Shown piece after piece: positions 38,573 through 57,361 of a stretch of 64,000 bases of DNA. The stretch comes from an uncultured Alphaproteobacteria bacterium (GTDB lineage Bacteria > Pseudomonadota > Alphaproteobacteria > HIMB59 > GCA-002718135): assembly GCA_902530685.1 (NCBI GenBank), contig CACAAZ010000001.1, positions 31,090-95,089 of the forward strand. The letters are read 5' to 3'. The stretch's first letter is position 1; each line of letters opens with the position of its first letter. The notes under the pieces are model-generated. The model did not search any database, was not told the origin of the DNA, and worked only from the letters and a program-made list of their open reading frames with translations. The translations under genes were made by a program, and so were the position numbers.

Positions 38573-39652
38573 TTAAATTTTCTTTCCAACACTTATTGAT
38601 TTGATGTCAGTAATTTTAGTGTATCTATTGATCATCTGTTCTGTCTTGTGCCCACTCATTTTCATAATTTCGTGAGTTAATGCACCATTCATTCTTGCTT
38701 GTGTAATTGCACCTATTCTCAGACTGTGTCCTGATATTTTATCACAATCATTCAGTCCGGCTAGACGGGCTCTTTTTTTTAAAATTAAAACAAAACTTGT
38801 ATCTGTTAAACTAATTTTTTTATTATTGTCATTTAATTCATATTTTATAATAGAATTTGCTTTGTCAATTCTGTAAAATAGGGGGCCAGAGTTTATCATA
38901 GATACCTCTAACCATTTGTTAAGAGCTCTAATTGGACAATATAATTCACTATCATCTCTTTTTTGCAAATATATTATTCTACCTTCACCTTTTTGGTCAG
39001 TTTTTGAAAATGGTATTAAAATTTGAATTCCACCATTATCATAAGTTAAATGTTCATATCTCATTCCCAGTAATTCTGATCTTCTACAAAAACTAAAATA
39101 CCCAACTAATATAAGAGCTTTATCTCTAATATTTTTATAATCATCAGTATCATCTGGAATTGAATTGATAATTTGCTCAATATCTTTTCTTAATAACTCT
39201 TTAGCTTGACCCGATTTATTATTTTTTTCGTTTCTAACTATTGCTCCAATAGTTTCTGAAATATTATTGTTTTTTCTGTCAAATTGAAAACCGTTTATCC
39301 TATATTTATATGTTATTGATGCTAAAATTCTTTGAATTGTAGATGCTTTATAAGCAGATGACGAGTAGGGGTTATTATTAATTTTTTCTCTACCTGGAAT
39401 GTTGCTTGTTCCCTTCAATATTTTCGCTTCTGGATCTTCATGGAGCCAATCTAAGTAATTACAAGTTAATGCATAAGCGCTTTCTAAATCATCAACCTCT
39501 AAAGGACTACAATTATGCTTATTTTTACAATAATCGATAAATTTAAGCCAATCTCCCTGATATTTATCTTGAGTGTTTTTGGCTTTAGATTTTTCTTTTA
39601 ATTTCTTTACATTTTCATTTAATAATATCTTTACCATGATAAAATAATACAT
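38573..39652 (-). CDS. Tyrosine recombinase / phage-type integrase
   Basis: C-terminal catalytic region FCRRSEL...GHSLRIGAITQ...MSGHKTEQMINRYTK (R, H.LR, H, Y). The true start may be the ATG at 39637 (MVKILL). Confidence 0.85.
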   Translation of the reverse strand: MYYFIMVKILLNENVKKLKEKSKAKNTQDKYQGDWLKFIDYCKNKHNCSPLEVDDLESAYALTCNYLDWLHEDPEAKILKGTSNIPGREKINNNPYSSSAYKASTIQRILASITYKYRINGFQFDRKNNNISETIGAIVRNEKNNKSGQAKELLRKDIEQIINSIPDDTDDYKNIRDKALILVGYFSFCRRSELLGMRYEHLTYDNGGIQILIPFSKTDQKGEGRIIYLQKRDDSELYCPIRALNKWLEVSMINSGPLFYRIDKANSIIKYELNDNNKKISLTDTSFVLILKKRARLAGLNDCDKISGHSLRIGAITQARMNGALTHEIMKMSGHKTEQMINRYTKITDIKSISVGKKI

Positions 39653-39804
39653 TACGATAATTACAGTTATCGTAAATAATAGTCAAGTGATAAATAATAT
39701 AACTATAAATCAGTAATTTATATATATTATCTAATTTAATTTCTAATATTACAAACTAGATATAGATTTTCACGTGTAATAAAATACTGTATATAGTGTA
39801 TCAA

Positions 39805-40530
39805 ATGGAACAATTACCGCAGATTTCAGCTGATTCCCAGATCTTTGTATTAACGGGTGCTGGTATAAGTAAAGAATCTGGGATTGAGACATTCAGAGAC
39901 TCTGATGGACTGTGGAATAATCATAGGATTGAGGATGTTGCCAGTCCTGAAGGATTCTATAGAAACCCTACTCTTGTATACGATTTTTATAATAAACGCC
40001 GAAAAGAACTAAACTCAGGAATTAAGCCAAATAGGGCCCATATTTTACTACATGAATTAGAAAAAACATATAAAATTCATATAGTTACACAAAATATCGA
40101 TAATTTACATGAGATTGGAGGTTCATCATCAATTATTCACATGCATGGTGAGTTAAATAAAGCTAGATGTATCATGAATGAAAACCATGTTTTTCAATGG
40201 CTAGAGGACCTCAATGAGACCCATAAATGCCCTAAATGTAATTCTCAATTAAGACCTCATATTGTTTGGTTTGGAGAAATGCCAATGCAAATGGAAGAAA
40301 TCCATGATTTAGCTGAGCAATCTAGTTTGTTTGTCTCTATTGGGACTTCTGGAGAGGTCTACCCTGCCGCTGGGTTTGTTTCTATGTTCAAAGATATGCA
40401 AAAACCAACTGTAGAACTAAATCTAGAACCATCACGCAATCAAGATCAATTTGATTTTGCTATTCATAAGCCTGCAACAGTTGCTGTTGAAGAATTTAAA
40501 AACTTACTTTTAAACAATTTAAAAAACTAA
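39805..40530 (+). CDS. cobB: NAD-dependent protein deacylase, Sir2/CobB family
   Basis: TGAGISKESGI.TFR, TQNIDNLHE, CPKC...LRPHIVWFGE, GTSG.VYPAA. ATG at 39805 preferred over the ORF-track GTG at 39796. Confidence 0.85.
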   Translation: MEQLPQISADSQIFVLTGAGISKESGIETFRDSDGLWNNHRIEDVASPEGFYRNPTLVYDFYNKRRKELNSGIKPNRAHILLHELEKTYKIHIVTQNIDNLHEIGGSSSIIHMHGELNKARCIMNENHVFQWLEDLNETHKCPKCNSQLRPHIVWFGEMPMQMEEIHDLAEQSSLFVSIGTSGEVYPAAGFVSMFKDMQKPTVELNLEPSRNQDQFDFAIHKPATVAVEEFKNLLLNNLKN

Positions 40531-40613
40531 TTTATTCACGTTATTAAATTTTTTTTAACAAAAAAATTTTTCTATAACTTTCTTTATAAAGAATCATTCG
40601 CATTAATGTTTTT

Positions 40614-41069
40614 ATGACAAGAAAACATCCTGATTACACTGAAGCACGTAATTATTACATAAAATGAGAGAGAAATGAGTACCCTACTCTTCAAGATATC
40701 GCTACAGAATTCAATTATTCTTTATCTACATTAAGAAAACAAGCAGCAAATGAAGGCTGGCTTTCAAAAAGAAAAGAAAGAATTGATCTTAAAGAAACAA
40801 TTAAAATGAGAAAAGAATTTATGGGAAAAGCTTCTAAACTTACCAATGTTTCTTTTAATGCAATTAGTGCTGCAGAATATATCATTACTAAAATTCAAGA
40901 AGAGCAAAAGCAAATTGAATTAGGACATAAAAGTTTTGATGTTCACATTGCTACTAAGCAAATTTGGGCTTTAAATAATGCAATGAAACTTGTTGAAAGA
41001 GGTCAACAAACACTTGATGAGATCGAAAATGGACATATGTCCCCTCTTGATGATTTATCTTTCTTATAA
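40614..41069 (+). pseudogene. Phage-type HTH / small-terminase-like gene interrupted by an in-frame TGA
   Basis: ATG at 40614 gives MTRKHPDYTEARNYYIK, then TGA (40665-40667). The same frame continues ERNEYPTLQDIATEFNYSLSTLRKQAANEGWLSKRKE... into the ORF-track ORF at 40806-41069. Confidence 0.55.
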
Positions 41070-41091: not shown

Positions 41092-41796
41092 TTAACGAGC
41101 TTCAACCAAACCTGGAACTTCAATTAAGATGATTTCTGTATCAGGATGACATTCAAGTGATATTTCTTCTTCATTTTTTATGGCTATACCATCTCCTTTT
41201 GAAGCTTCAATATCGCCAATCTTAATATTTCCTTTAGAAACAAGAAGATATCCTTGTCCTTTAATAAGATGCTTAAGTGTTGTGTTATCTTTAAACATAC
41301 CAGTGTATATTCTTGCATCTTGATGAATTTGAAGCGGCGCATCATTATTTCCAGATACTAATAATTTTAGTTTATCTGTTGTAGAGGTAGTTGGAAATTC
41401 TGCACTTCCCCATTTTGGCTCAATATCTCTTGATTTAGGTATGATCCAAATTTGAAAGATATTCGTCTCTTCATCCTCGTGATTAAATTCAGAATGCATA
41501 ATTCCTGTTCCAGCACTCATTACTTGAACATTACCTGCAGTAGTTCTCCCTTTATTACCTTGACTATCTTCATGACTAATAGCCCCTTTTCGAACAAAAG
41601 TTATTATTTCCATATTGTCATGCGGGTGCTTTCCAAAACCTGTATTAGGAGCAATTCTATCGTCATTAATTACTAATAATTCTCCAAAACCCATTTTTTT
41701 AGGATCGTAATAATTAGCAAAACTAAAATGATGTTTGGCATTAAGCCAACCGTGATTGGCACCACCAAGAGTATCAAATGGATAATGTGTAATCAT
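41092..41796 (-). CDS. Pirin-family bicupin protein
   Basis: GF..HPH...E..T.V..G...H.DS.G pattern (GFGKHPHDNMEIITFVRKGAISHEDSQGN). Confidence 0.85.
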   Translation of the reverse strand: MITHYPFDTLGGANHGWLNAKHHFSFANYYDPKKMGFGELLVINDDRIAPNTGFGKHPHDNMEIITFVRKGAISHEDSQGNKGRTTAGNVQVMSAGTGIMHSEFNHEDEETNIFQIWIIPKSRDIEPKWGSAEFPTTSTTDKLKLLVSGNNDAPLQIHQDARIYTGMFKDNTTLKHLIKGQGYLLVSKGNIKIGDIEASKGDGIAIKNEEEISLECHPDTEIILIEVPGLVEAR

Positions 41797-41951
41797 GGCT
41801 CTTAGTTAGTGATCAATTTTTTATAATCAAGAATATCAAATGATCAACGAAAAATTTTATAAAATTTTCTAATCATCAGATTAGTCAAACCAGATCATGT
41901 GAGTTGCTAATTTTAATTGATTTTACAATTACTCTAGCTAAATAAAAACGT

Positions 41952-42560
41952 ATGAAAGAAACTTACTACAAACCTTTTGGGCCAACAATTGGTAAATATA
42001 ATTTATCACATACAATGATTGGTAAAGTTAATTCTTTTGCAAATAAGATAATTGAAAATAAACACAAAAGTAAAGTGTTGGATCACTCACATAGATTAGT
42101 GGGAAATGTTCAACAACAATTTCGCTTAACAAAAGATTTTCTTTTTACTAGCGGTTTAGAAAAACAACTTAACCGCATTATTGAATCTTATTACAAAAAC
42201 GTCATTCAAGTTAAGCCCTCCTCCATTAAAATTGATCGCGCGTGGATTGTTAGACAATTTGCTGGTGATTTTAACCCACCACATATTCATAGAGGGAATG
42301 TTAGTGGAGTTTGTTATCTTGAAGTTCCAAATTCTATTAAATATAACAAAGAGATTGCTTTTGCTGGAAGACTTTCTTTTTTTGATGGTCGTGTCTCCAT
42401 GCCACGCAATAGTCCTCCTTTGGTAAAGCATCGTATTACCTTTAAACCTCGTGTCGGTGATATGTATATATTTCCTGCTTTTTTAATGCATGATGTTCAT
42501 CCTTTTCGTAAAGATGGCGAGCGAAGATGTTTTTCTTTTAATGCATTTGTAAAAACTTAA
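41952..42560 (+). CDS. 2OG-Fe(II) oxygenase superfamily protein (TIGR02466-like)
   Basis: PPHIHRGNVSGVCYLEVP ... GDMYIFPAFLMHDVHPF ... RRCFSFN match the family hallmarks. Confidence 0.7.
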   Translation: MKETYYKPFGPTIGKYNLSHTMIGKVNSFANKIIENKHKSKVLDHSHRLVGNVQQQFRLTKDFLFTSGLEKQLNRIIESYYKNVIQVKPSSIKIDRAWIVRQFAGDFNPPHIHRGNVSGVCYLEVPNSIKYNKEIAFAGRLSFFDGRVSMPRNSPPLVKHRITFKPRVGDMYIFPAFLMHDVHPFRKDGERRCFSFNAFVKT

Positions 42561-42770
42561 AATTTATTTTGTAGTAGCAAATTATTTTTGGTAGGTAATA
42601 AAAGAAGGAATTTCTTTCATTACGATTATCCCACCACCAACTAAGGAGATTGTTAATGGACTCTGCTATATAAATATTTCATGTCTATAATGCATCCAAA
42701 GCATTTATCTAAGAGTAAAAAATATGTAACAAAAGAGTGTTATGGTTATTAAAATAAGAAAGGAAAAATT

Positions 42771-43139
42771 ATGGACTCAAAAGCAATAGTACAAAAAGGT
42801 TATGATCTATTTGGAAAAGGTGACATGGAAGGTTTCATGGATTTAGTACATGATGATTTTATTTGGATATATCCAGGTGATAAACATCCATTTTCAGGAA
42901 CTCATAATAAAGAGGGTTTTCAACAACAATTAATGAAAACTCCTGAACTCTGGACCAATTTTCAAGTTACTATAGAATCAATGATCAGCGAAGGTGATAA
43001 AGTTTTTATAAATGCAAAAGCAACTGCTGAAGGCATGGATACAATTTTTGGACACTACATGGAAGTAAAAGATGATAAGTTGTCAAAGTTTATCGCTTAT
43101 GATGATACTTTAAGTATGTTTAATGCAATGAAAAAATAG
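42771..43139 (+). CDS. SnoaL/NTF2-like fold protein
   Basis: 122 aa. VQKGYDLFGKGDMEGFMDLVHDDFIW is a typical SnoaL-like N-terminus. Confidence 0.65.
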   Translation: MDSKAIVQKGYDLFGKGDMEGFMDLVHDDFIWIYPGDKHPFSGTHNKEGFQQQLMKTPELWTNFQVTIESMISEGDKVFINAKATAEGMDTIFGHYMEVKDDKLSKFIAYDDTLSMFNAMKK

Positions 43140-43227
43140 ATTTTATAAAAATTTCATTAGAAGGGATTAACTCCCCTCAAATTTTTTAAAAGAATACAAA
43201 TTTCAATTGTAAGAAAGGAGTTTAATT

Positions 43228-43503
43228 ATGAAAATTATATCACACGCAAAATTAACTAAAGGTTATGAGCATTGGAAACAAGCATTTGATGAAAACGAAA
43301 GTTTAAGACAAGAATATGGGGTTACTGTATTAGCTTACGGACATCCCAAAGATAAAAAAGATGAAATTTATACTGTTCTTCAGGTTGAGTCTATGGAGCG
43401 AATGCAAGAAATGTTGAATTTACCATCAATGGTAAAATTAAGAACAGAGGCAGGAGTAGACCTTGAAACTCAAACATTCATTATGTTAGAAGGTGGAAAT
43501 TAA
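43228..43503 (+). CDS. Small hypothetical protein (possible alpha+beta barrel)
   Basis: 91-aa ORF with SD AAGGAG upstream. No confident family. Confidence 0.4.
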   Translation: MKIISHAKLTKGYEHWKQAFDENESLRQEYGVTVLAYGHPKDKKDEIYTVLQVESMERMQEMLNLPSMVKLRTEAGVDLETQTFIMLEGGN

Positions 43504-43512
43504 TATTGTAAT

Positions 43513-43902
43513 ATGTCTAATCCTTTTATTTTAATAGCTAGAATAAGAGTAAAAGAAGGTAAGGTTGATGAGTATCTTAAGATAGCAAAAGAAGCTGATG
43601 ACGCCGTTAATGCATCAGAACCAGATATGTTGATCCATACTTTTGATCAAGATCCAACAGATCCATTAGAATTTACCTGGAGTGAAGTCTACCGTACCAG
43701 TGAAGCGATGGTTCATCACATTAATAACCCTCCTGTTGTAGCTTATGTAGAAAAACATCAAGAAATAGCAGATAAATTTGAAATAGAAGTTTACGGTAAT
43801 ATTACGGATGAAACTATTAAAGCAATTGAAGATCTTAATGTTCCCTTCAGACACTTTAAAACAACTAAAGTTGGCTATATTAGAAAGGAAAAATTCACAT
43901 GA
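43513..43902 (+). CDS. Antibiotic-biosynthesis-monooxygenase (ABM)-like protein
   Basis: IARIRVKEGKVDEYL......A...EP..L.H......P..F...EVY.. is an ABM-like pattern. Confidence 0.55.
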   Translation: MSNPFILIARIRVKEGKVDEYLKIAKEADDAVNASEPDMLIHTFDQDPTDPLEFTWSEVYRTSEAMVHHINNPPVVAYVEKHQEIADKFEIEVYGNITDETIKAIEDLNVPFRHFKTTKVGYIRKEKFT

Positions 43903-44900
43903 AATATATTCTAATTTTTTTACTAATTGTATCTATACCCTCTTTGTCTTTTGGAAATAAATTCGAAGATAAAATGAAAAAAAAAGAAAAGAAAAATTAT
44001 GATCAATATGTTCTAAGAGGTGAATTAGAAGGCAATATGGTTTTCACAATAAGAAATATCAAAGAAAAAAAGGGGTTAGTTAGTTTTTTTGATGAATTTG
44101 AAGATAGATTTGGTGTCAAAGAAAAAGGTGTAGAATTTAATATTAAATATTCAGATGAAGGTCATAAATTGGATTGGGAAAGATGGGGTAATCCCGGGCA
44201 CGCTCAACGCTTTCAGATAATGGAACCACTTAAAAAAGTTGCCAAAAAAAACCAAACTAAATGGTACCGCGTAGAATATTTTTTAGATGGAAAATATTTT
44301 AGCAAGAAACATAATCTAAGTATTTTTGATTTTAAGCCTATTAAAGGTAAATCAGAAGTAGGAGTAGGCCCAACTTTTAATTATTCAAATAATAGGTTTT
44401 CATGGACATTTAATTCAGAAAAATTTTTTACAGATAATAATGAAACTGGTCGACAGAATTATTACAATACCTTTTCTCTTGATCTTAACCAAAATGAAAT
44501 TTCCTTAAAAGGGAAGTGGGTTAATTTAATAATAAATGCTAAGTGGGCAGATGATGGCTTCTTGCATTTATGGATTGATGGGAAACTGGTATCAAGTTAC
44601 TATGGTCAAACTTTGGCAGGCGCAGATAAAATTCGTATAAAGTTTGGTCCTTATCGAAACTATATGGATGATGCTACGTCAGAAAATATAGATATCCCTG
44701 ATCTAAATGTGAAATATGCAAATATTGGAAAATCTAATAAATGTGATGACCTTTGGTCTGGATGTGATGAACTGACAGATCAGTTATTGAATAATTCTCA
44801 AGCACATTTTGCTCATGCTATAATCTTATGTGAAACCGCACCTAATAAAGATACGAAATGTAGAAATTCTGGTTGGCCTCAAAAAAATATTCCTTTTTAA
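43899..44900 (+). CDS. Secreted protein, polysaccharide-lyase/concanavalin-like fold (tentative)
   Basis: Signal peptide. W.NL...AKW..DGFLHLWIDGKLV.....IRIKFGPYR resembles heparin-lyase-I-like Polysacc_lyase proteins. Low certainty. Confidence 0.4.
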   Translation: MKYILIFLLIVSIPSLSFGNKFEDKMKKKEKKNYDQYVLRGELEGNMVFTIRNIKEKKGLVSFFDEFEDRFGVKEKGVEFNIKYSDEGHKLDWERWGNPGHAQRFQIMEPLKKVAKKNQTKWYRVEYFLDGKYFSKKHNLSIFDFKPIKGKSEVGVGPTFNYSNNRFSWTFNSEKFFTDNNETGRQNYYNTFSLDLNQNEISLKGKWVNLIINAKWADDGFLHLWIDGKLVSSYYGQTLAGADKIRIKFGPYRNYMDDATSENIDIPDLNVKYANIGKSNKCDDLWSGCDELTDQLLNNSQAHFAHAIILCETAPNKDTKCRNSGWPQKNIPF

Positions 44901-45318
44901 TTAAATTAAAAATGTTTTTAAAATTAATTTACTTATTAGAAAGTTAATATTGATTTTTTAAAAGTATAAAGTTAATATAAATTCTTTTTTAGCTTCCTCA
45001 ATTAAGAATTTTTCTAATTTAGATAATTCCTTTCTAGAAGTTATTTTATAAAAATCTTCCTTCCATGGTAAATGATCAGTTTTTATATAGACCCAATTTT
45101 CTATTTTTGTTTCATCTTCATTAAATTTTTTAGCTATCTTTTTTACTATAAAACTTAAATAATATTTTTTAACTTTTTCTTGCTCGTCGGATAATCTATT
45201 ATTAACTTTAATTATCTCTCTTAATTCTTCATCTGTATACTTAACTTCTTTATCAAGTTCATAATTTAAATTTAATTTTTTAAATTTTTGGAATATTTTA
45301 TGTTATCAAATTTTATTT

Positions 45319-46488
45319 TTATAGAAGTTTTAATTGAAAATTATTATTTTTTATTTCTTTATTTAAGTGTTTTTTTATAAGAATTTCATTGATTTGTTCA
45401 CCAATACATTTAGCTAAAATGGGTGGTACAGCATTACCTATTTGAATGCCAATTGATCCTCTAGATCCATAAAATATAAAATCATCATCAAAGGATTGAA
45501 GTCTTGCAGCCTCTCTTGCTGTTATTGCTCTGTTTTGAAGAGGGTGCACTACCCTGCCAACTGATGGTGTATCAAACCTTGTTGTTATAGTATAGCTTTG
45601 TTTGTTTAACTCCATTCTACCAAATGAACCACTATGAATAGATTTTGTCCTTAAATTTTTTGGTAAATCATTTCTGCCTTGACCAGGTTTTATCATTTCT
45701 AATAATTTAATAATTCTTTCGTCATGACTGCTTGCAATATGGTTATATAGAATATTACTTTTTTTTCTTCTTGCTTTTTGATACTCACTTATGGGTTTTT
45801 TTGTGTATTGAGTTTCAAACTCACCTTCCCCATTATTTAAAACAGGTAAATCCATAATTGCATCACTTATTGAAACATAAGAATTTTTATATGTTGTTAT
45901 TTTTTTTGGATAAAAAAGATCAGGATTAATTTTTAAATTATTACCTATAAAGAAAGCTCTTTTTCTTTGTTGAGGTACTCCATAATCAGATGCTTTTAAT
46001 ACCTTAACCTTCAAATCATAGCCAATACTATTAAATAAGTTAAAAATTTCATTTTTAATTTTACCATTTTCTAAATTTAAAATCCCTTGCACATTTTCAA
46101 TTACAAAAACTTTTGGGTTAAGGTTTTTAACAATTTTATAAAATTGATAAAATAATTGATTTCTATCATCATCGATAAATTTACCATTACCTCTAATCCT
46201 TCTTCCAGACATGCTAAAACCTTGGCAAGGAGGCCCACCAATTATGATATCAATTTTTTTGTTTTGTGATAATTTTTTAATATCAATATTAATAATATCT
46301 TGAGAAAACATCTTAACATTTGGGTGATTTTTTGTGTAGGTATTTGCTATACTTTTATTAAACTCAACAGCAGAAACAATATTAAAACCAGCTTGTTCAA
46401 AACCTTTTGAAAAACCACCTACTCCGGAAAAGAGATCAATAACATTAAATATCTTTTTTTTGCCAGCCATATATATTTTTTGAACCAA
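45319..46488 (-). CDS. DNA (cytosine-5) methyltransferase
   Basis: Complete motif set: I DLFSGVGG (aa 18-25), IV GGPPCQGFS (84-92), VI ENV, VIII QQRKRAFF, IX RAITAREAARLQSFDD, X GNAVPP. The start may be the ATG at 46470. Overlaps the upstream MTase. Confidence 0.9.
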   Translation of the reverse strand: MVQKIYMAGKKKIFNVIDLFSGVGGFSKGFEQAGFNIVSAVEFNKSIANTYTKNHPNVKMFSQDIINIDIKKLSQNKKIDIIIGGPPCQGFSMSGRRIRGNGKFIDDDRNQLFYQFYKIVKNLNPKVFVIENVQGILNLENGKIKNEIFNLFNSIGYDLKVKVLKASDYGVPQQRKRAFFIGNNLKINPDLFYPKKITTYKNSYVSISDAIMDLPVLNNGEGEFETQYTKKPISEYQKARRKKSNILYNHIASSHDERIIKLLEMIKPGQGRNDLPKNLRTKSIHSGSFGRMELNKQSYTITTRFDTPSVGRVVHPLQNRAITAREAARLQSFDDDFIFYGSRGSIGIQIGNAVPPILAKCIGEQINEILIKKHLNKEIKNNNFQLKLL

Positions 46489-48049
46489 TTAATATTTTTT
46501 TGTAATTAAAAGCAGTTGATAAAAATTTATCAAGATTGTTAATACAAAAATAATTATATTTATAAAAACTTTTACTGACAATAAAAGGTATAATTATTTC
46601 ATATAATTTATCAGGAGTTAAAATATTATTATTTTTTTCAATTAAATTAGTTACATTTTTAATTAATAATTTTTCTAACTTTTCTTCAGATAGATTATTT
46701 TTATGGATTTTGATTTGGTTATTTTTAGTCTCTTTTCTAAAATTATAAATAAAATCACCATAAAATGTATTTTTGTAATTAAGACCTTGTGTGCCTGATT
46801 TAACTGCTTGTGATTGATAATTAATATTAATCAATTTAAATCCAGAATTAAGAGCGGCATTTATCACTGCTCTCCATATATTCATATCTCTATTATGAAA
46901 AGAAAAAGAAAAATACTTTTTGTTTTTTAATACTCTATAGATTTCTTTAAATGTACTGGTCATTCTTAACTCGTAATCTTCATATAGTTTTTTTCTATAA
47001 GGATCATAAATTATCTCACTTTTGTATTTAACTTTTTTTTGCAACCAAGAATTCCAAAACATACTTAAGCCTAAATATGCAATACTTTCACCATAAGGAG
47101 GGTCAGTAAAAACATAATCTATTGATTGGTTTTTGAGAAAATTCATTTTTTCAGAAGTTTTATTAAAAATTTTAGCATTTTTTGAGTTGAGATTTAACTC
47201 TTCTTTACCTTCTTTCATTTTTTTGAATCTATTTTCAAATGTAATAAATATATTTTTTTCAGTATGGATTTTAGGAACCCATAGTTTACTTACTACCCAC
47301 CCCGATCTACCACGAATATTTTTTTCATTTCCGGGTATCATTTTGGATACAGATGATAACATTGAAGAAAAACACAACATCAAACAATCTCTGTATTTGG
47401 TATTTTTTATTAGTAAAATCTTTTTATAAATACTACCGAGTATTAATAATGCTCTTTCAGAATAGAGTTGATCTATATTAGTTTTTCCACTCCTTTTAAC
47501 ATATTGCAATATTAAATCTTTTGGGTAAAAAATTTTATTTTCTTTACTTAATTTAAATAATTTTCTTTTTGCTTGGTTAAATAACTTAATATCTTCATCA
47601 TTAGCTTTTCTATTGGTTTCACCACATTTTTTACATTTCACTTTTATAAGTTTCAATTTTTCTTGTTCCCATATTGAATTAATTAACTCACCACTATTTT
47701 TACAATTAATACAAGATGATTTATAATATTTAGAATATTCTAATTGTGTTGTTGTAAGGATTTCATAAAATATTTTTTCTAGCCTATTTAAATTTATATT
47801 CTCTATTGTAATTTTTGTCAGTAAACATGAAATTGGATTTATATCAACACCAACTGCATTTCTTGATTCTTTTAGAGATTCTATTATAACAACACCACTA
47901 CCTAGAAATGGATCTAATACCGTGTCACCTTTTTTTGAGTAAGCTTTAATGTATTCATTGACTACATTGTGTGGCTTTCTACCCCAATATCTATGAAGTA
48001 AATAATGTTTTGGATGACTTTTTGGTTCAATATTTTTAGAAATTTTCAA
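46445..48049 (-). CDS. N6-adenine/N4-cytosine DNA methyltransferase with internal Zn-ribbon
   Basis: SAM motif HRYWGRKPHN...VLDPFLGSG (aa 46-52) at the N-terminus. Catalytic DPPYG at aa 316-320. CINC...CKKC (C113, C116, C139, C142) lies between them. Confidence 0.85.
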   Translation of the reverse strand: MKISKNIEPKSHPKHYLLHRYWGRKPHNVVNEYIKAYSKKGDTVLDPFLGSGVVIIESLKESRNAVGVDINPISCLLTKITIENINLNRLEKIFYEILTTTQLEYSKYYKSSCINCKNSGELINSIWEQEKLKLIKVKCKKCGETNRKANDEDIKLFNQAKRKLFKLSKENKIFYPKDLILQYVKRSGKTNIDQLYSERALLILGSIYKKILLIKNTKYRDCLMLCFSSMLSSVSKMIPGNEKNIRGRSGWVVSKLWVPKIHTEKNIFITFENRFKKMKEGKEELNLNSKNAKIFNKTSEKMNFLKNQSIDYVFTDPPYGESIAYLGLSMFWNSWLQKKVKYKSEIIYDPYRKKLYEDYELRMTSTFKEIYRVLKNKKYFSFSFHNRDMNIWRAVINAALNSGFKLININYQSQAVKSGTQGLNYKNTFYGDFIYNFRKETKNNQIKIHKNNLSEEKLEKLLIKNVTNLIEKNNNILTPDKLYEIIIPFIVSKSFYKYNYFCINNLDKFLSTAFNYKKILIGSKNIYGWQKKDI

Positions 48050-48052
48050 ATT

Positions 48053-50563: not shown

Positions 50564-50668
50564 TTAATCAATTTCACATGCGTAAACATATTTGTGACCT
50601 AAAAGTTCAAGACCAAAATGAAGGCCTCCTAAGCCTGAAAATAGATCAATAAATTTTAATTTTGCCAT
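50564..50668 (-). pseudogene. 34-aa N-terminal stub of a second C5 DNA methyltransferase
   Basis: Minus-strand ORF MAKLKFIDLFSGLGGLHFGLELLGHKYVYACEID* carries motif I (DLFSGLGG) and motif II (ACEID) only. Its TAA is immediately followed by the helicase ATG. Confidence 0.6.
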
Positions 50669-50673
50669 TTTAA

Positions 50674-51438
50674 TTAGACACCGGAGTTACGATATAAGCA
50701 ATGCTTGCAGTTTGGATTTTGATCTGGAATTTTATCATTATCTAATGTTTTTTTAATATTTAAAATTGTTTTATCAACCCAAGAATAATCTCCTTCATAG
50801 GATAAAATATCAATTTTAAATTTTAACTCTTCATTAAAGTTTTCTATATTTTTATAATATGCACTACAAAAAACAAAATAGGCAGTTGTAGAAACATCAA
50901 AGCCATTTTTATTAAACAGCCATTGATAAAATTCAACTTGTTTCTTATACCAATATTTATGAGGGGCTCCTTTTTCATCTAATGAGGGATCTAGAGGTTC
51001 ATTTGTTTTTTTATCATATGATACTGTTGTACTTTTATAATCAGCAATAAAAATTTTACCATTTTTGTCAGTCCAACAATCATCTATTGCCCCGTATAAT
51101 AGAAAATTAGTATCAGTATCGTGGTACTGTATTCCTTTGCGATTATTTTGCCAATCTTCAATTTCATCATGTTTATAGGGAATTAAATCTATTTCATGTT
51201 CTTTACAGTATGGGTGTACAGTTTGTGTTTTTCTATATTTATCAAATTCATTTTTAAGTAATTTATCCAAAGCTGTTGGAATATATGACATTGGTCCTGA
51301 TGGACGGGCAATGCGATATTTTTCTAAACGATCTATGTAAAAACAACGAGGACATTGTAAAAAAAGATCAACCTTGCTTCGACTAAGTTTAAAAGGTTCG
51401 TTTTGACCTGATATATATAAATTTTTTTTATTAACCAT
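50674..51438 (-). CDS. Cas4/RecB-like PD-(D/E)XK nuclease with 4-Cys cluster
   Basis: C29..C32 and C244..C247. GAIDD (D119/D120), IADYK (D133, K135), QVEFY (Q167...Y171) give the RecB-family D/(D/E)XK/QxxxY arrangement. Confidence 0.75.
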   Translation of the reverse strand: MVNKKNLYISGQNEPFKLSRSKVDLFLQCPRCFYIDRLEKYRIARPSGPMSYIPTALDKLLKNEFDKYRKTQTVHPYCKEHEIDLIPYKHDEIEDWQNNRKGIQYHDTDTNFLLYGAIDDCWTDKNGKIFIADYKSTTVSYDKKTNEPLDPSLDEKGAPHKYWYKKQVEFYQWLFNKNGFDVSTTAYFVFCSAYYKNIENFNEELKFKIDILSYEGDYSWVDKTILNIKKTLDNDKIPDQNPNCKHCLYRNSGV

Positions 51439-52563: not shown

Positions 52564-52610
52564 GGGGTATAAAGCCCTCTCCACTGAGGGAGTTTTGCCC
52601 CATTTATTTT
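52564..52610 (+). terminator. GC-rich nested hairpin plus T-rich tail (likely intrinsic terminator)
   Basis: GGGG(52564-67)...CCCTC(75-79) tccact GAGGG(86-90)...CCCC(98-601), followed by ATTTATTTT, 21 nt after the stop at 52543. Confidence 0.4.
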
Positions 52611-53600: not shown

Positions 53601-53659
53601 ATAAATTATTTTCTAAGCGTAATTTCAGGAATAACTAATTCTTCACGTTTATTTTCTCT

Positions 53660-53728
53660 GATGTTACTCAAGAATTTAAACACTACTTATCTACTTTAAG
53701 AAAAAAAGTAGCAAATGAAGGTTGGTAA
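53660..53728 (+). pseudogene. Truncated, diverged second copy of the HTH gene at 40614-41069
   Basis: DVTQEFKHYLSTLRKKVANEGW* versus DIATEFNYSLSTLRKQAANEGW(LSK...) at 40695-40760, 14/22 aa identical. Decayed similarity (AAGCGTAATT) is visible back to ~53614. Confidence 0.5.
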
Positions 53729-53756: not shown

Positions 53757-54074
53757 TTATGAAGTAGGAGGAGAAAAATCTACTTTATTTCCCATTTCTC
53801 TTACTTTGTTTAAATCAACAGACTCTAAAGTAACTGCCTCAGTAAGAGTACCTGCTGCTTTTGCTTTTAGAGCACAAGCTGCCATACTTTCAAAAGAATC
53901 AGCTTCAGTAATCATTACAAAATCATACTGCCCTCTTGTAATATGGTAATCAATTAATTTTCCACCAACACTGCTTACCATTTTTTCCATAGCTGCTTTT
54001 CTATCAGAGTCTCCATTAATGATACCATCTGCACCTTTTTGAGAATATATACCAAGTGATACAAAAATTGACAT
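53757..54074 (-). CDS. GYD-domain protein
   Basis: 105 aa. RGQYDFVMITEA contains the GYD signature. SD AAGGAGG upstream. Confidence 0.7.
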   Translation of the reverse strand: MSIFVSLGIYSQKGADGIINGDSDRKAAMEKMVSSVGGKLIDYHITRGQYDFVMITEADSFESMAACALKAKAAGTLTEAVTLESVDLNKVREMGNKVDFSPPTS

Positions 54075-54209
54075 TTAATAACCTCCTTTTTAATCTTTAT
54101 TAATTATATTTGAATTTTTTATTAAAAAGTTATGAAGATCAATAATATTTTTATTAATAAACTTAAAAGATTTGAATAACTATTCGTTAATTGTTAAGTT
54201 AGAATGTTT

Positions 54210-55403
54210 TTAATTTAAATGACTTAGTGCCTGGTCTAAATCATTAATTAAATCTTCAACATCTTCAATTCCACAACTATATCTTACAAGCCCCTCCGGT
54301 ATTCCAGCAGCAGCTCTTTCATTAGCACTACACTCAACATGACTTGTTGTTGAGGGCGGCCCTACTACTGTTTCTACACATCCAAGATTTGCTGCCATAT
54401 GAGCATATTTTAATTTAGGTAAAAATATTTTGATTGCATCTAAATCACCTTTAACAGCAAAACTAAGCATGCCACCATAACCACCAGGCATTTGTTCTTT
54501 GGCAATTTCATGTCCAGGATGAGTTTCTAAACCAGGATAATTAACTTGTTCAACCATAGGATGTTTTTGTAAATGTTTTGCAATAATCATTGCGCTTTCA
54601 TTTTGTTTTTCTATCCTTAGTTTAAGAGTTTTCATACCACGTAATAAGCTATAAGCATCCATTGGTGATAAAGTTGCTCCATTTATCTCCCTGTAGTGAT
54701 TTGCTTTCTTAATTAGATCTTTATTGCCACAAATCACTCCTCCAAGAGCATCAGCGTGACCACCTAAATATTTTGAAGCAGAATGAAGAACAATATCTGC
54801 ACCTAATGTTAATGGATGCTGATTAATTGGAGTAGCAAATGTATTATCAACAATAACCAAAGCCCCTACTTTCTTTGCTTCTGCACTTAGTTTTTTAATA
54901 TCTGTAATTTTAACAGTTGGATTAGTTGGTGTTTCTAAATATAAAATTTGGCAACCTCTTGCTATTTCATTTTTTATTTGTTCATCATCATGGGTTTCAC
55001 AAAGACTAACGTCTATATTTAACGGAGGTAAAAATTCATTGAAAATTATATTTGTTCCACCATAACTATCTTTAATAGAAACAATTCTGTCTCCAGATTT
55101 TAAAAAGGTTAATAAAGAATTACTTATAGCGGCCATACCTGAGGAAAAACTTGTAGCTGCTTCAGCATTTTCTAGTTCTTTACATTTATCTTCAAAGGCT
55201 CTTACAGTAGGATTGCTATTTCGGGAATAAATGTGGCCATCAACCATACCAAGAGCAGCTTGATGCCACGTATCAATATCTTTGTATCCAAAAGATACGC
55301 TATGAACAACGGGGACTTGTGTGGAACGTTCATAGAGCTCATGCTCTTGTTCTCCGCCCCAGATACTTTTTGTTGATTGTCCTATTTCTTTTTTATCACT
55401 CAT
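54210..55403 (-). CDS. Cys/Met-metabolism PLP enzyme (cystathionine gamma-synthase / O-acylhomoserine sulfhydrylase / methionine gamma-lyase family)
   Basis: YSRNSNPT, SGMAAI and SASKYLGGHAD (PLP lysine). Start moved to the ATG at 55403 after SD AGGAG, because the ORF-track TTG at 55451 adds a non-homologous leader. Confidence 0.8.
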   Translation of the reverse strand: MSDKKEIGQSTKSIWGGEQEHELYERSTQVPVVHSVSFGYKDIDTWHQAALGMVDGHIYSRNSNPTVRAFEDKCKELENAEAATSFSSGMAAISNSLLTFLKSGDRIVSIKDSYGGTNIIFNEFLPPLNIDVSLCETHDDEQIKNEIARGCQILYLETPTNPTVKITDIKKLSAEAKKVGALVIVDNTFATPINQHPLTLGADIVLHSASKYLGGHADALGGVICGNKDLIKKANHYREINGATLSPMDAYSLLRGMKTLKLRIEKQNESAMIIAKHLQKHPMVEQVNYPGLETHPGHEIAKEQMPGGYGGMLSFAVKGDLDAIKIFLPKLKYAHMAANLGCVETVVGPPSTTSHVECSANERAAAGIPEGLVRYSCGIEDVEDLINDLDQALSHLN

Positions 55404-55578
55404 AAAAACTCCTATTCTTGCATGACTATAAATAAGCAAATTACTTTTCAAGGCAGCGCTATAAAAGCCTTTATCTTGATGTGAAATATTATACTTAAAA
55501 TTATTAATTTTGATAGAATTTTTTTGAATTCTTGTATTTTCAAATTAATAATAAAGATGCTAAGATTAAATAATAAAA

Positions 55579-56424
55579 ATGATCGAAGAAAATATTAGCT
55601 ATTTTATTAATTTAGATAAATATCCAATTCATGATCCCGAAAGTAAAAAATATCAGTCTGTTATCAAAGAAGCTCGAGAAGCTCTAAAATTTGATGGTTG
55701 TTATGTTTTACAATCAATAGTTAATGCTGATGCTATTAAAGAAATGCAAGATGAAGCAACAAGAATTGAAAAATTAGCTCATTATACATCAAATAAAGTT
55801 AATGTATATTTTAGCAAGGATGACCCATCTTATCCTGAGGATCATCCACGTCGATTTTTTATGGAAAGAAGTAATGGATTTGTTTCAGGTGATAAATTTC
55901 CTGAAAATTCAAAAATAAAAGATTTATATTATTCTGAAATACTTAAAAATTTTATTGCTGATTGTTTAGAAGTAAAAATGTATCACTATGCTGATCCTTT
56001 AGCTTCATTAACAATAAATGTAAATAAACCAGGCGATCGTTTTTCTTGGCATTATGATACAAATGAATTTACAGTTACAATGCTAGTTCAGGATTGTGAT
56101 CAAGGAGGTATTTTTCAATACGTTCCTAACATTAGGAATAAAGATGATGAATGTTATGATGAAGTTCAAAAACTTCTTCATGGAGATACATCTAAAATAA
56201 AAGAAATAAAACTTAATGAAGGTGATCTTCAATTATTTAAAGGTCGTTATGCTCTTCACAGAGCAACCAGAGCTGAAGGAGATAAAACAAGAAATTTAGT
56301 TGTATTTACATACACTGAAAAAGAAAACGTTATTGGATCTTCTTACAGAACAGAAGAGCTTTACGGTAAGACACTTGATGTTCATAAACAAACAAAAGTT
56401 AGAAGTGATAATTTAACTGATTAA
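55579..56424 (+). CDS. Putative Fe(II)/2OG-dependent oxygenase
   Basis: WHYDTNEF (H.D) and distal LHRAT...R with a jelly-roll-like spacing. Motif-level call only. Confidence 0.5.
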   Translation: MIEENISYFINLDKYPIHDPESKKYQSVIKEAREALKFDGCYVLQSIVNADAIKEMQDEATRIEKLAHYTSNKVNVYFSKDDPSYPEDHPRRFFMERSNGFVSGDKFPENSKIKDLYYSEILKNFIADCLEVKMYHYADPLASLTINVNKPGDRFSWHYDTNEFTVTMLVQDCDQGGIFQYVPNIRNKDDECYDEVQKLLHGDTSKIKEIKLNEGDLQLFKGRYALHRATRAEGDKTRNLVVFTYTEKENVIGSSYRTEELYGKTLDVHKQTKVRSDNLTD

Positions 56425-56428
56425 AACT

Positions 56429-57361
56429 ATGAAAAAAATTGGAATGATAGGTCTTGGAAATATGGGTAGTGCAGTTGCACGCAATATTCTAAGAGCTTAC
56501 TACCCTCTTTATGTCTATGATATTAATAAAAAAGCTGGCAAAAATGTAATAGATAATGGCGGTATAGTTACAAACTCCCCAAAAGAACTTTTAAGTGAAG
56601 TTGATATTATTGTTTCTATGGTTTTTGGGCCAAAAGAAATTGAAGATGTTTTAAAAGGACAAAACGGTATGCTGAAAACATCTTGCAAAGATAAAGTTTG
56701 GATAGATTTAACAACTAGTTCCCCTACTCTAATGAGAAGTTTAGCAAAAGAATTTGAAGATGCTGGTGGGTATACAGTTGATGCACCAGTTACAGGTTCA
56801 TTAGACTCAGCAATACGCGGAGATATGATTATGTTTGTTGGGGGATCAGAAATTGCCTTAGAAAAAGCAAAGGAAGTTTTAGACACAATTGGCAAAACAA
56901 GATTAGTTGGAAAATATGGCAATGGATACGTAGCAAAGCTTGTTAACAATCAATTATGGAAGATTCATGCTTCAGCTATTGGAGAAGCAATGGTCTTAGC
57001 TAAAAAAGCAGGATTAGAACCAGATGTTTGGTGGGAAGTAATGAAAGGTGGTGCAGCAGATAGCTTTGTTCTTCATCATGATGTGCCATCAATATTTGCT
57101 GGTCATTATGATCCATCTTTTCGTGTAGAATTAGCATTAAAGGATTTGGATTTAATACAAGAATTAATTAATGAACATAAAACTAGAGCAGAATTAACTA
57201 ATGCTGCTCATGAGAGATTTAAAGAAGCTAAAGATCGTTACGGAGACAAAGCTGGAGAAATGACAGTTTGCAAAGTAATCGAAGAAGATGCTAATGTAAA
57301 TTTACAAGTTAAGGGTAATTGGATTGCCCCATGGGAAGTAAAACATCCTAAAGAAAATTAA
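56429..57361 (+). CDS. 3-hydroxyisobutyrate / 2-hydroxy-3-oxopropionate reductase-family dehydrogenase
   Basis: IGMIGLGNMGSAVARN Rossmann motif and the G.G...KL.NN helix (GNGYVAKLVNNQ). Confidence 0.8.
   Translation: MKKIGMIGLGNMGSAVARNILRAYYPLYVYDINKKAGKNVIDNGGIVTNSPKELLSEVDIIVSMVFGPKEIEDVLKGQNGMLKTSCKDKVWIDLTTSSPTLMRSLAKEFEDAGGYTVDAPVTGSLDSAIRGDMIMFVGGSEIALEKAKEVLDTIGKTRLVGKYGNGYVAKLVNNQLWKIHASAIGEAMVLAKKAGLEPDVWWEVMKGGAADSFVLHHDVPSIFAGHYDPSFRVELALKDLDLIQELINEHKTRAELTNAAHERFKEAKDRYGDKAGEMTVCKVIEEDANVNLQVKGNWIAPWEVKHPKEN

Follow-up and report, generated by a model that had tools for sequence, protein, structure and literature searches.

The question raised by this locus is whether the accessory genes lying next to a tyrosine recombinase gene were brought in by that recombinase. 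The first-pass annotation had read the region as an integrase-bounded island of stacked acquisitions built by serial integration; taken as a whole, that observation is partly confirmed and its interpretation partly supported. The window, the whole 64,000-nucleotide stretch of DNA that was analysed and in which all positions are numbered (Table 1), contains a genuine hypervariable gene-exchange hotspot of an ocean Pelagibacteraceae (SAR11) genome, in which lineages trade blocks of accessory genes and the blocks become stacked. Among named relatives, Pelagibacteraceae MAGs come closest (GcvP identity 77%). A hotspot of swapped and stacked blocks is an already known kind of feature, and the region is probably best explained as a chromosomal flexible-gene hotspot (hypervariable region or additive flexible genomic island) of a SAR11-family bacterium, with exchange mainly by homologous recombination. 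The neighbouring "integrase" gene is a long-standing resident and probably not the vehicle for the cargo.

Table 1. Features of the hotspot and its anchors, with window coordinates.
Feature	Position	Strand	Basis or remark
INT, Cre-like tyrosine recombinase, 354 aa, left anchor	38573..39637	-	Pfam Phage_integrase, E 1e-14
24-bp palindrome, TTACGATAA-TTACAG-TTATCGTAA	39652..39675		~12 nt upstream of INT start codon
SIR2, CobB-type sirtuin, first gene of exchanged segment, divergent from INT	39805..40530	+	Pfam SIR2, E 3e-46
HTH gene, 150 aa, inactivated	40614..41069	+	In-frame TGA at 40665-40667
Pirin(-), 2OG-Fe(II) oxygenase, SnoaL-like protein, 91-aa ORF (block A cassettes)	41092..43503		Pfam
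ABM monooxygenase and polysaccharide-lyase-like secreted protein (PL)	43513..44900	+	Pfam
8.8-kb segment separating PL from GYD, which are adjacent in L100 and L082	44901..53725		Comparison of junctions
Open frame, ~108 codons, without ATG/GTG/TTG start	44965..45290	-	Six-frame translation
30-nt direct repeat, left copy (29/30 match to right copy, 51746-51775)	45303..45332	+	Copies flank RM cluster
Restriction-modification (RM)/defence cluster	45319..51438	-	Pfam, NCBIfam, PADLOC
u255, N-terminal hydrophobic segment	51776..52543	+	No family match
38-nt GC-rich hairpin, GGGGTATAAAGCCCTCTCCACTGAGGGAGTTTTGCCCC	52564..52601	+	Invariant
u323, N-terminal hydrophobic segment	52629..53600	+	No family match
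EamA' remnant, 3' end, last 17 codons, RENKREELVIPEITLRK and stop	53602..53659	-	Foreign allele
HTH' remnant, residues 27-49, ending ...ANEGW and stop	53660..53725	+	66 nt, 77% identical to full HTH gene
GYD-domain protein and cystathionine-gamma-synthase-family PLP enzyme	53757..55451	-	Pfam, NCBIfam
HalD-like Fe/2OG enzyme and HIBADH-type dehydrogenase	55579..57361	+	Pfam
EamA transporter, right anchor, 3' end towards island	57369..58304	-	Pfam EamA

The gene content from SIR2 to EamA differs in each of the ten related loci compared (L001, L004, L081, L082, L083, L085, L086, L088, L090 and L100) while the anchors stay in place, which bears out the description of the region as hypervariable. 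Cassettes are more identical between genomes than their flanks are. Against the SAG L100, the flanking genes of the window are 71.6% (AhpC), 87.8% (mem141) and 76.7% (INT, nucleotide level) identical, and the cargo genes 99.7% (SIR2), 99.8% (HTH), 99.1% (pirin) and 100% (both the 2OG-Fe(II) oxygenase and the SnoaL-like protein). L082 and L100 share ABM-PL-GYD at 95% and the INT-SIR2-HTH stretch at 84%, and the HalD-HIBADH pair is 88-89% identical at the nucleotide level to that of L004, where it also abuts EamA, with EamA at 76% and an ion channel at 80% in the same comparison. The DNA between the anchors has been exchanged as cassettes among diverged lineages. Since INT is 77% identical to its L100 counterpart while the genes from SIR2 through SnoaL are 99-100% identical, the recombinase gene does not travel with the cargo. 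The relationships of INT and SIR2 are discordant, and the patchworks of identity change partner at approximately 39.6, 40.15 and 40.45 kb. The crossover point varies with the genome pair, which favours homologous over site-specific recombination.

The base composition had been judged from four 60-nt lines, whose counts of 23, 29, 11 and 6 G+C are exact. In windowed statistics the compositional break holds for the two higher-GC blocks, but the step is modest at 4-5 points over the core. Block A (39796-44900, GC 0.312) and block B (53757-57361, GC 0.318) exceed the maxima of core windows of matching size (0.297 and 0.307, respectively; 0.271 +/- 0.015 for such windows), and their tetranucleotide distances peak at z = +4.8 and +3.4, respectively. 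The island proteins are indeed poorer in Lys, Asn and Ile, with K+N+I of 0.22 and 0.20 versus a core value of 0.278 (MWU p = 2e-5). The middle block (45.0-53.6 kb), which had been called ultra-AT, has a GC content of 0.256-0.259, near the 20th percentile of the core windows, and does not differ from the core in GC3, GC1 or amino-acid composition; the line with 6/60 G+C is a local extreme. GC3 is raised in block A only (0.204 vs core 0.150 +/- 0.024). Block B has a core-like GC3 of 0.145 with its GC excess at codon positions 1 and 2, and its excess therefore reflects protein composition. The last observation, the core-like middle block and the single core genes that are as GC-rich as the island (GC 0.32-0.33) would all fit a native gene order in which GC differences mirror nothing but the encoded proteins. 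The raised GC3 and tetranucleotide distance of block A speak against it, as does the contrast between cargo at 99-100% identity and core genes at 72-88% in the same genomes, and the gene order differs in every relative examined. This reading is hardly credible and is already refuted by the comparative data.

The recombinase gene at the compositional edge was correctly recognised, with an open frame at 38573-39652(-), but it sits outside the exchanged DNA. Its real start is probably at 39637, because homologues are 352-354 aa long. The nearest solved structure is Cre (E 2.5e-6), with XerD far behind (E 0.3), and the catalytic residues R185, K212, H304, R307, H330 and Y339 are invariant across nine INT homologues. 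The family is large and close-knit (757 homologues, the best 120 at 67-94% identity) and of fixed length, 352-355 aa. With a dN/dS of 0.03-0.15, the gene is vertically inherited under strong purifying selection. INT is functional and ancient, and nothing shows that the cargo was moved by it. A search of IMG/VR gave no relatives, and matches in phage GenBank entries are at most 28% identical. The left side of INT is also variable, as L081 and L082 carry MlrC and a cyclase/channel block there, both absent from the window.

The palindrome upstream of INT may serve as a recombinase core site or as an operator. It is present in all nine INT loci, exactly in seven and with one outer mismatch in two, and its noncoding, low-GC 9-6-9 layout includes a spacer that is likewise invariant in 9/9 loci. 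No further copy was found elsewhere in 1.5 Mb of loci, and in none of the nine loci has cargo been inserted at it. Identity between the window and L100 rises from approximately 80% to 99.5% at its left edge, with the switch at 39,651.

Wherever the contig of an INT locus extends to that side, SIR2 is paired with INT (seven related loci; L084 and L087 are left out as their contigs end first). SIR2 scores 284 bits against the NCBIfam Sir2 deacetylase model, under the 318-bit cutoff, and has no defence match in PADLOC. The HTH gene that follows is 91% identical to an intact 151-aa ORF of L082, where the codon at the position of the in-frame TGA encodes Gly (GGA); the TGA is the sole difference from L100 within the gene. 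The copy and the remnant of this gene noted in the first-pass annotation are real. The label "phage-type" is not sustained: the protein gives only sub-threshold terminase-small-subunit matches (E 0.007-0.008), and a search for viral relatives found none. The block A cassettes from pirin to the 91-aa ORF have a GC3 of 0.17-0.22 versus 0.15 in the core and are 96-100% identical to L100. The ABM-PL pair is common to L100 (94-96%) and L082 (94%) and also occurs in other arrangements in L001 and L096.

In L100 and L082 the PL stop lies 15 nt from the GYD terminator hairpin, with an identical junction sequence in both. The comparison supports 44901-53725 as a probable insertion between genes that are adjacent in these two genomes, its polarity (insertion versus deletion) being set by parsimony alone, two genomes versus one. 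Near its left end is the open frame without a start codon, which has no Pfam, PHROG or PADLOC match. The RM cluster encodes a C5 MTase, an N4/N6 MTase, a helicase-nuclease resembling type IV restriction enzymes and a Cas4-like PD-(D/E)XK nuclease (PADLOC: MTase_II 404 and 189 bits, mREase_IV 203 bits), and its GC3 is core-like. L081 holds just a 3' relic of the PD-(D/E)XK gene (96.7% identical) next to a different RM system. The 30-nt repeat pair that flanks the cluster was matched by none of 200 dinucleotide shuffles, and its right copy is the sequence that natively precedes u255, also in L004 and L081. The u255 gene, which also lacks a PADLOC match, is 91% identical to L081 and 71% to L004 at the nucleotide level, and u323 has homologues (57-60%) in the neighbourhood of bactofilin in L057-L060 and L066.

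At the right end of the 8.8-kb segment, EamA' and HTH' abut at 53659/53660, and the right end of HTH' is the exact insertion boundary relative to L082 and L100. EamA' matches the EamA 3' ends of L100, L094 and L097 at 89.7% identity, and these stand directly beside the hairpin in their loci; EamA' is less like the window's own EamA (~65%). The junction is the scar left by a second copy of the island, which was probably circularly permuted or in tandem. Stacking is supported: internal remnants of both end anchors stand side by side, and the segment interrupts the PL|GYD adjacency, so the claim of stacked acquisitions stands. The 30-nt repeat pair and the PD-(D/E)XK relic of L081 point the same way.

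The hairpin marks the EamA-proximal end of the island. It has a predicted RNA fold of -23.9 kcal/mol (z = -4.2) and matches no Rfam family. Sixteen copies are known, one per locus, with left- and right-flank types that re-assort freely, and a covariance-model search of 1.4 Mb found no diverged copies. At least four different cargoes lie within the 18-35 nt that separate the hairpin from the EamA stop codon, a variety that suggests more targeting than homologous recombination alone would give; an anchor of 38 nt is also short for RecA-dependent exchange, which counts against homologous recombination.

The right edge is as sharp as had been described, with the HIBADH gene ending at 57361 and the EamA stop codon starting at 57369. 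EamA neighbours different cargo in L001, L004, L014, L100 and L092-L098. The GYD protein is 98% identical to L082 at the amino-acid level, none of the compared loci yielded a close copy of the PLP enzyme, and L090 has the order hairpin-HalD-HIBADH.

A history that would account for these observations places the vertically inherited Cre-like recombinase gene, the palindrome, the sirtuin gene and often the 150-aa HTH gene as left anchors, and the invariant hairpin with the EamA 3' end as right anchors. Exchange would rely mainly on homologous recombination with both endpoints in conserved anchors or shared cassettes, and illegitimate joins would arise at module borders. The first layer would be the SIR2-to-SnoaL block, shared very recently, with an older ABM-PL tail. 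A second layer would be the insertion at PL|GYD, which carries the RM cluster, u255, hairpin, u323 and the joined remnants; their junction goes back to the second island copy, which was probably circular or tandem when incorporated. The GYD, PLP-enzyme and HalD-HIBADH cassettes beside EamA would form a third layer.

The model of the first-pass annotation, in which the integrase is part of the island, built it, and left att-like scars through the serial site-specific integration of prophage remnants, integrative islands or similar mobile elements, is improbable. The recombinase is intact with all of its catalytic residues, and the duplicated HTH and EamA 3'-end fragments resemble att duplications at the 3' end of a gene; these remnants, however, are 77% and ~65% like the full copies and not exact cores. 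The identity step beside the integrase gene also fits, as a site-specific crossover at the palindrome would give the same step within 1-2 nt of it, yet crossover points are not fixed between pairs and the palindrome holds no cargo in any locus. A search for direct repeats joining the two island edges found none above chance and no att repeats bounding the island. Phage, conjugation and replication genes are missing from the island, INT and the HTH protein both lack viral relatives, and INT diverges where the cargo does not. Very little probability attaches to an integron-like platform in which a resident recombinase captures promoterless cassettes, with the palindrome in the role of attI and the hairpin in that of an attC-like site. 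Such a platform would match the resident recombinase with an adjacent site and mostly co-oriented small ORFs (122, 91 and 129 aa), and the hairpin stands exactly where left and right modules re-assort. INT has no match to the integron-integrase model, however, and is nearest to Cre and not IntI; the hairpin occurs once per island and not once per cassette, and by inspection lacks the R''/R' GTTRRRY core. SIR2 is always the first gene, the palindrome never receives an insert, and whole multi-gene blocks move with genes in both orientations.

It is also possible, though unlikely, that INT and the palindrome form a housekeeping site-specific module, for chromosome-dimer resolution or of a Cre/loxP-like kind, and that variable DNA merely accumulates alongside. 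Variable DNA builds up around dif sites and replication termini. Against this, INT reaches 35-49 bits with the NCBIfam XerD, XerC and XerA models, whose cutoffs are 220-335, and the palindrome may just as well serve as operator of the divergent INT and SIR2 promoters. No replicative GC-skew inflection is present at 39.66 kb or elsewhere in the window, a powerless test as replicative skew itself is undetectable there. In favour are the invariant noncoding palindrome directly upstream of the recombinase gene, the vertical inheritance, purifying selection and fixed length of INT, and Cre as its closest solved relative. The absence of dif/Xer reported for P. ubique (PMC2731167) and the overlooked single-recombinase Xer system of Legionellales as a precedent (PMC9765430) count on the same side. 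The module is likened to XerS/difSL, XerH/difH, XerL/dif and Cre/loxP, and the arrangement of palindrome and INT is the same as in the xerS and xerH modules (PMC2731167).

The stretch between the recombinase gene and EamA (approximately 39.65–57.36 kb of the window) is a hypervariable region, as the first-pass annotation had proposed, since its cargo differs in all ten informative loci while its anchors recur. These loci came from an M29-peptidase genome scan and from look-ups of the integrase and pirin homologues. The left anchor, composed of a Cre-like tyrosine recombinase gene (INT) and a divergent sirtuin gene (SIR2), recurs in every INT locus whose contig covers that side. On the right, the order EamA, ion channel, bactofilin and M29 peptidase recurs among the related loci. 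The window GcvP has its nearest named relatives in Pelagibacteraceae MAGs (77% identity), which identifies the host as a SAR11-family bacterium. Exact-protein look-ups with the two island-bordering genes gave no recorded match. Two tandem IMES-4 RNA motifs (74–78 bits) lie just upstream of the glycine riboswitch and gcvT-H-P operon (12167–12246, 12385–12464, 12546–12631). The features of the island and of the loci compared with it (L-numbers) are collected in the table.

Features of the island and gene orders of the related loci
Locus	Feature	Position	Strand	Remarks
Window	INT, tyrosine recombinase	38573–39637	minus	left anchor
Window	24-bp palindrome	39652–39675		perfect 9-6-9, TTACGATAA-TTACAG-TTATCGTAA; ~12 nt upstream of INT start codon
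Window	conserved block upstream of SIR2	39760–39800		GATTTTCACGTGTAATAAAATACTGTATATAGTGTA
Window	SIR2, CobB-type sirtuin			left anchor; divergent from INT
Window	HTH gene, 150 aa			left anchor; in-frame TGA at 40665–40667
Window	block A	39796–44900		cargo: pirin, 2OG oxygenase, SnoaL-like protein, 91-aa ORF, ABM monooxygenase, polysaccharide-lyase-like protein (PL)
Window	segment between PL and GYD	44901–53725		8.8 kb
Window	startless open frame, ~108 codons	44965–45290	minus	without ATG, GTG or TTG start; without family match
Window	30-nt direct repeat	45303–45332; 51746–51775		29/30 match
Window	RM cluster			C5 methyltransferase, N4/N6 methyltransferase, type-IV-restriction-like helicase-nuclease, Cas4-like PD-(D/E)XK nuclease
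Window	noncoding stretch, 307 nt	51439–51745		PD-(D/E)XK gene to u255; hairpin aagaggtcattgttgacctctt at ~51513–51534
Window	u255 and u323			two proteins, no family
Window	GC-rich hairpin, 38 nt	52564–52601	plus	near EamA end of island
Window	EamA remnant	53602–53659	minus	last 17 codons
Window	HTH remnant	53660–53725		residues 27–49
Window	block B	53757–57361		GYD protein, cystathionine-gamma-synthase-family enzyme, HalD-like enzyme, HIBADH-type dehydrogenase; then core EamA (right anchor)
L100	gene order			INT-SIR2-HTH-pirin-2OG-SnoaL-91aa-ABM-PL, directly GYD, 89-aa ORF, hairpin, EamA
L100	hairpin	6124–6161		
L082	gene order			SIR2-HTH-PD-(D/E)XK-like-C5 MTase-rhodanese-ABM-PL-GYD-DUF1330...
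L082	hairpin	306–343		
L081	gene content			SIR2, type III-like Res/Mod pair, relic of the window's PD-(D/E)XK gene, u255, copper protein, MacB/ABC
L004	gene order			SIR2-u255-MacB/ABC/HlyD-hairpin-HalD-HIBADH-EamA
L004	hairpin	8889–8926		
L001	gene order			ABM-desaturase-hairpin-PL-EamA
L001	hairpin	14773–14810		
L088	gene order			SIR2-HTH-UvrD-DUF2779-Eco57I-C5 MTase
L083	gene order			SIR2-M50 peptidase-glyoxalase-cupin-TRAP transporter
L089–L099	hairpin			

The cargo of L100, a SAG locus, corresponds to block A and the GYD protein only. The TGA codon within the window HTH gene replaces a GGA (Gly) codon of L082 and L100, is the sole within-gene difference from L100, and could reflect either recent nonsense mutation or an error in sequencing. 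With methyltransferases beside nuclease and helicase genes, the RM cluster is predicted from its domains to be a restriction-modification or defence cluster; its C5 methyltransferase scores 264 bits with Pfam and 404 bits with PADLOC, and its helicase is mREase_IV-like and features an MTES_1575 nuclease domain. SIR2 was also considered as a defence gene, but PADLOC gave no match and the protein is CobB-like. The right edge of the island is as sharp as had been described, with 7 nt between the HIBADH stop codon and that of the core EamA gene. Promoter and terminator scans gave counts not above those of shuffled sequence. Most of the noncoding stretch beside u255 (51439–51696) has no match in any related locus.

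Variation extends to the left of INT, where an MlrC gene and a 5.5-kb guanylate-cyclase/ion-channel block differ between loci. The MlrC-family gene (1.5 kb) lies between INT and the next gene in L081 (11089–12564), L082 and L088 and is absent in the window, where the stop codons of INT and of the left-flank gene mem141 are 10 nt apart (38562–38573). The 5.5-kb block is found in L081, L082 and L100 and is missing from the window's left flank. A second indel hotspot is the gap between the M29 peptidase and bactofilin genes (59613–59746), which holds approximately 5 kb of extra DNA in L002, L005, L006 and L014, including in L014 a match to the 5' ureB sRNA family. Also in L014, the position immediately next to the EamA 3' end (18662–18784) holds none of the window cargo but glutamine riboswitches in tandem and an ATP-grasp gene that is circularly permuted. 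Past the ABM gene, the SAG contig of L001 (17000–21239) is at approximately 40% GC over a length exceeding 4 kb that has no ORF larger than about 107 aa and no Rfam match; chimeric assembly could account for this stretch, as could foreign DNA that has degraded.

The compositional argument for an island was sound in part. The four 60-nt G+C counts made by hand (23, 29, 11 and 6) are exact on recount, and the two blocks described as GC-rich, A (0.312) and B (0.318), are higher than all windows of their size in the 45 kb that flank the island (mean 0.271, sd 0.015, maxima 0.297 and 0.307), the window as a whole having a G+C content of 27.4%. The step is small, and individual core genes attain equal values. 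Synonymous sites are raised in block A only (GC3 0.204 vs 0.150 ± 0.024); the excess of block B reflects protein composition, because its GC3 of 0.145 is core-like. The reported shortage of Lys, Asn and Ile in island proteins is borne out (p = 2e-5). The tetranucleotide distance peaks in block A (z = +4.8) and block B (z = +3.4), and the lowest composition-normalised tetranucleotide correlation lies at 49–54 kb (z = -3.5). The label "ultra-AT" for the middle block (45.0–53.6 kb) did not survive: its GC of 0.256–0.259 is at about the 20th percentile among core windows, and no difference from the core was detected in GC1, GC2, GC3 or amino-acid use.

Comparison with L100 bears on how the cargo moves. 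Outside the cargo, nucleotide identity is 71.6% for the left-flank gene AhpC, 87.8% for mem141 and 76.7% for INT, whereas within it SIR2 (99.7%), HTH (99.8%), pirin (99.1%), 2OG and SnoaL (both 100%) are nearly or fully identical, followed by the 91-aa ORF, ABM and PL at 94–96%. Mismatches are dense through 39650 and almost absent from 39652, the first base of the 24-bp palindrome, so the identity step falls at the palindrome's left edge. Smaller steps of like kind occur against L081 and L082, and the window's closest partner changes at ~40.15 and ~40.45 kb. INT and SIR2 relationships are discordant in many locus pairs and the crossover point shifts: L085 and L086 are 100% identical in INT and the spacer and 94% in SIR2, whereas L085 and L088 share 69% in the spacer and 93% in SIR2. 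At the right end, HalD and HIBADH of the window and L004 are 88–89% identical against 76% for EamA (flanking core 76–80%). At both ends the shared cassettes are therefore more alike than the flanking core (99–100% vs 72–88% and 88–89% vs 76–80%), as in a flexible island. These alignments point to homologous recombination that took place repeatedly and ended at variable points, and not to a single fixed crossover. A second strongly conserved block, upstream of SIR2, is kept even where INT identity is 73%; it includes the palindrome CACGTG as well as a half-match to an SOS box of the CTGT type.

The integrase had been taken to bound the island and to have built it by serial integration; a tyrosine recombinase does lie at the island end, but its role as builder is not upheld. 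INT has 757 homologues, the best 120 of which are 67–94% identical and 352–355 aa in length. It evolves with a dN/dS of 0.03–0.15 (0.027 in the single unsaturated pair) and its chromosomal neighbourhood is conserved. Its history differs from that of the cargo, at 76.7% identity to L100 against 99–100% for SIR2 through SnoaL. The closest solved structure is Cre (E 2.5e-6, aligned over residues 98–344), with XerD far behind (E 0.3). All six catalytic residues (R185, K212, H304, R307, H330, Y339) are invariant, and the R-K-H-R-(H/W)-Y set, the two-domain size and the lack of an arm-binding domain are those of a Cre-type recombinase. No Xer or integron-integrase model of NCBIfam reaches its threshold, the Xer scores being 49 bits against a cutoff of 330 for XerD, 41 against 220 for XerA and 38 against 335 for XerC.

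Other routes of integration were weighed and rejected. The direct repeats expected to join the island edges as att sites were not recovered, as the longest shared word is 11 nt, against 9.9 on average and at most 14 in shuffled sequences. For a phage or prophage origin, the PHROGs matches in the island comprise a generic integrase, a helicase and Sir2 only, with no phage, conjugation or replication genes among them; none of INT, the HTH profile and the hairpin had relatives in scans of IMG/VR, and in phage GenBank entries the INT matches are at most 28% identical and the HTH protein has none. A tRNA target would have to be the sole tRNA gene, Arg-CCT (61431–61507), which lies 4 kb beyond the island, where no partial copy of it occurs. 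An integron is opposed by the lack of an IntI model match, of IntI among the listed structures, where Cre is closest, and of any repeated attC-like family, there being one hairpin per island.

Two short DNA elements mark the island ends. The arms and spacer of the palindrome are conserved in nine of nine INT loci; no further copy was found in the island or any locus (1.5 Mb), and no cargo is inserted at it in any of the nine. By analogy with loxP beside cre and difSL, which adjoins xerS (PMC2731167), it may be the recombinase core site, or else an operator. P. ubique is reported to have no dif/Xer (PMC2731167) and an overlooked single-recombinase Xer system was later found in Legionellales (PMC9765430), which makes dimer resolution a candidate role for INT worth testing. 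Corrected for gene orientation, the strand skew (left, -0.002 ± 0.012; right, -0.001 ± 0.017) leaves no replicative signal by which a terminus could be placed within the 64-kb window. It seems unlikely to us that INT and the palindrome constitute an unrecognised SAR11 site-specific system, either a dif/Xer-type dimer resolvase or a lox-like left docking site with the hairpin as the right-hand docking or insertion site.

The 38-nt hairpin (-23.9 kcal/mol, z = -4.2) is present as a single copy per locus, both in the five loci that were retrieved independently (the window, L001, L004, L082 and L100) and in 11 metagenome contigs found through a near-exact pattern. Four of the five independent copies are identical, and that of L004 differs at three positions. 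In seven loci it lies 18–35 nt from the EamA stop codon; in others PL, HalD-HIBADH, a GMC oxidoreductase or u323 stands between them. Its flanks re-assort freely, with at least three left types and at least five right types. As a known RNA it was rejected, with no Rfam family even at E = 10; a covariance model detected no diverged copies in 1.4 Mb, and a simple terminator scan did not flag it. Candidate roles for the hairpin are those of a short homology anchor, of a target for insertion and of a conserved terminator acting in both directions.

The interior of the island bears out the stacking that the first-pass annotation had suspected. PL and GYD are neighbours in L100 and L082, where 15 nt separate the stop codon of PL from the GYD terminator hairpin and the junction sequence is identical; in the window the 8.8-kb segment interrupts this adjacency. 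The HTH remnant reported earlier is present at the right end of this segment, and directly left of it is an EamA remnant that had been missed. The latter shares 89.7% identity with the 3' ends of EamA in L100, L094 and L097, which adjoin the hairpin, and is less similar to the window's own EamA. With the two remnants abutting, a right-hand anchor is joined to a left-hand anchor inside the island, a junction type that arises in a tandem hotspot duplication or a circularised island copy. Since these remnants represent diverged alleles, another lineage was most likely involved, either as the source of the second island copy or by converting it afterwards. A permuted circle could have inserted between PL and GYD, or a tandem arrangement could have formed and then been trimmed by deletions. 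At the left end of the inserted segment, the startless open frame may represent a gene that was truncated. The 30-nt direct repeat flanks the RM cluster (0/200 shuffles); on the right it coincides with the native sequence upstream of u255, and its left copy provides the stop codon of the C5 methyltransferase. In L081 only the 3' third of the PD-(D/E)XK gene is left, beside a different RM system, which shows that defence genes have been replaced in situ.

The original observation is largely right, and its interpretation is right on hypervariability and stacking and wrong in making the integrase the builder. SAR11 is the most abundant bacterial clade of the ocean, and its flexible genes are located in a few hotspots. 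The clade is not known to possess integrons, Xer/dif or most types of mobile element. The turnover of these hotspots is poorly understood because mobile elements are almost absent. The window gives a nucleotide-level view of one hotspot, with defined anchors, shared cassettes, RM replacement and a stacking scar, and its cassettes are 99–100% identical in genomes with core genes 72–88% identical. It also draws attention to a resident recombinase of Cre-like type and to two short DNA elements that are extremely conserved. Should the recombinase and the palindrome prove to serve in dimer resolution or docking, they would close a gap that has been noted since 2009, and in either case SAR11 would have a new kind of cassette-exchange platform.

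Among known systems, simple tyrosine recombinase modules include P1 Cre, Dre/rox and Vika/vox. INT resembles Cre over ~240 residues, in size and in its catalytic hexad, and has a short palindromic site with an asymmetric spacer adjoining its gene. Unlike Cre, to which it is ~23% identical, it is chromosomal and vertically inherited in a free-living bacterium, its recombinase activity is predicted, and its one known site has 9-nt arms and a 6-nt spacer instead of the 13-8-13 arrangement. As in chromosomal integrons, a resident tyrosine recombinase heads a variable array with small co-oriented ORFs, but the integrase is not of IntI type, cassettes have no attC, the first gene (SIR2) is constant, and multi-gene blocks in both orientations are exchanged. 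The displaced EamA 3' end recalls islands accreted in tandem at gene 3' ends, although the remnants here are diverged alleles and not exact att cores. In Helicobacter, RM gene complexes are reportedly inserted with long target duplication. The 30-nt repeat bracketing the RM cluster, with a native right copy, is similar, but on the RM side the repeat overlaps the stop codon of the methyltransferase. Neither an integrase nor a transposase was found inside the inserted segment.

The single-recombinase Xer/dif systems (XerS/difSL, XerH/difH and XerL/dif; PMC2731167, PMC1914069, PMC9765430) likewise employ one ~355-aa recombinase, and the INT site is similarly palindromic with a 6-nt centre, low in GC, noncoding, lineage-conserved and linked to the recombinase gene. 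INT differs in falling below every Xer family threshold, and no IMEX-like insertion is seen at its palindrome. The island belongs to a known kind, the hypervariable regions or flexible islands of SAR11 (Wilhelm et al. 2007, PMC2217521; gMED SAR11 pangenome study, PMC11796062), the latter study linking one integrase to 'GI-35'. It shares with them a fixed slot between conserved genes, content that varies among close relatives, enrichment in restriction-modification, transport and unknown genes, the absence of attC sites and canonical mobile elements, and exchange that is apparently through homologous flanks. It is a new, well-resolved case of this kind. In contrast to those regions, its anchors (the INT palindrome, the 38-nt hairpin and the 3' end of EamA) can be placed with nucleotide precision, its recombinase is shown to be resident and discordant with the neighbouring SIR2, and internal remnants of both anchors record a stacked or permuted second copy.
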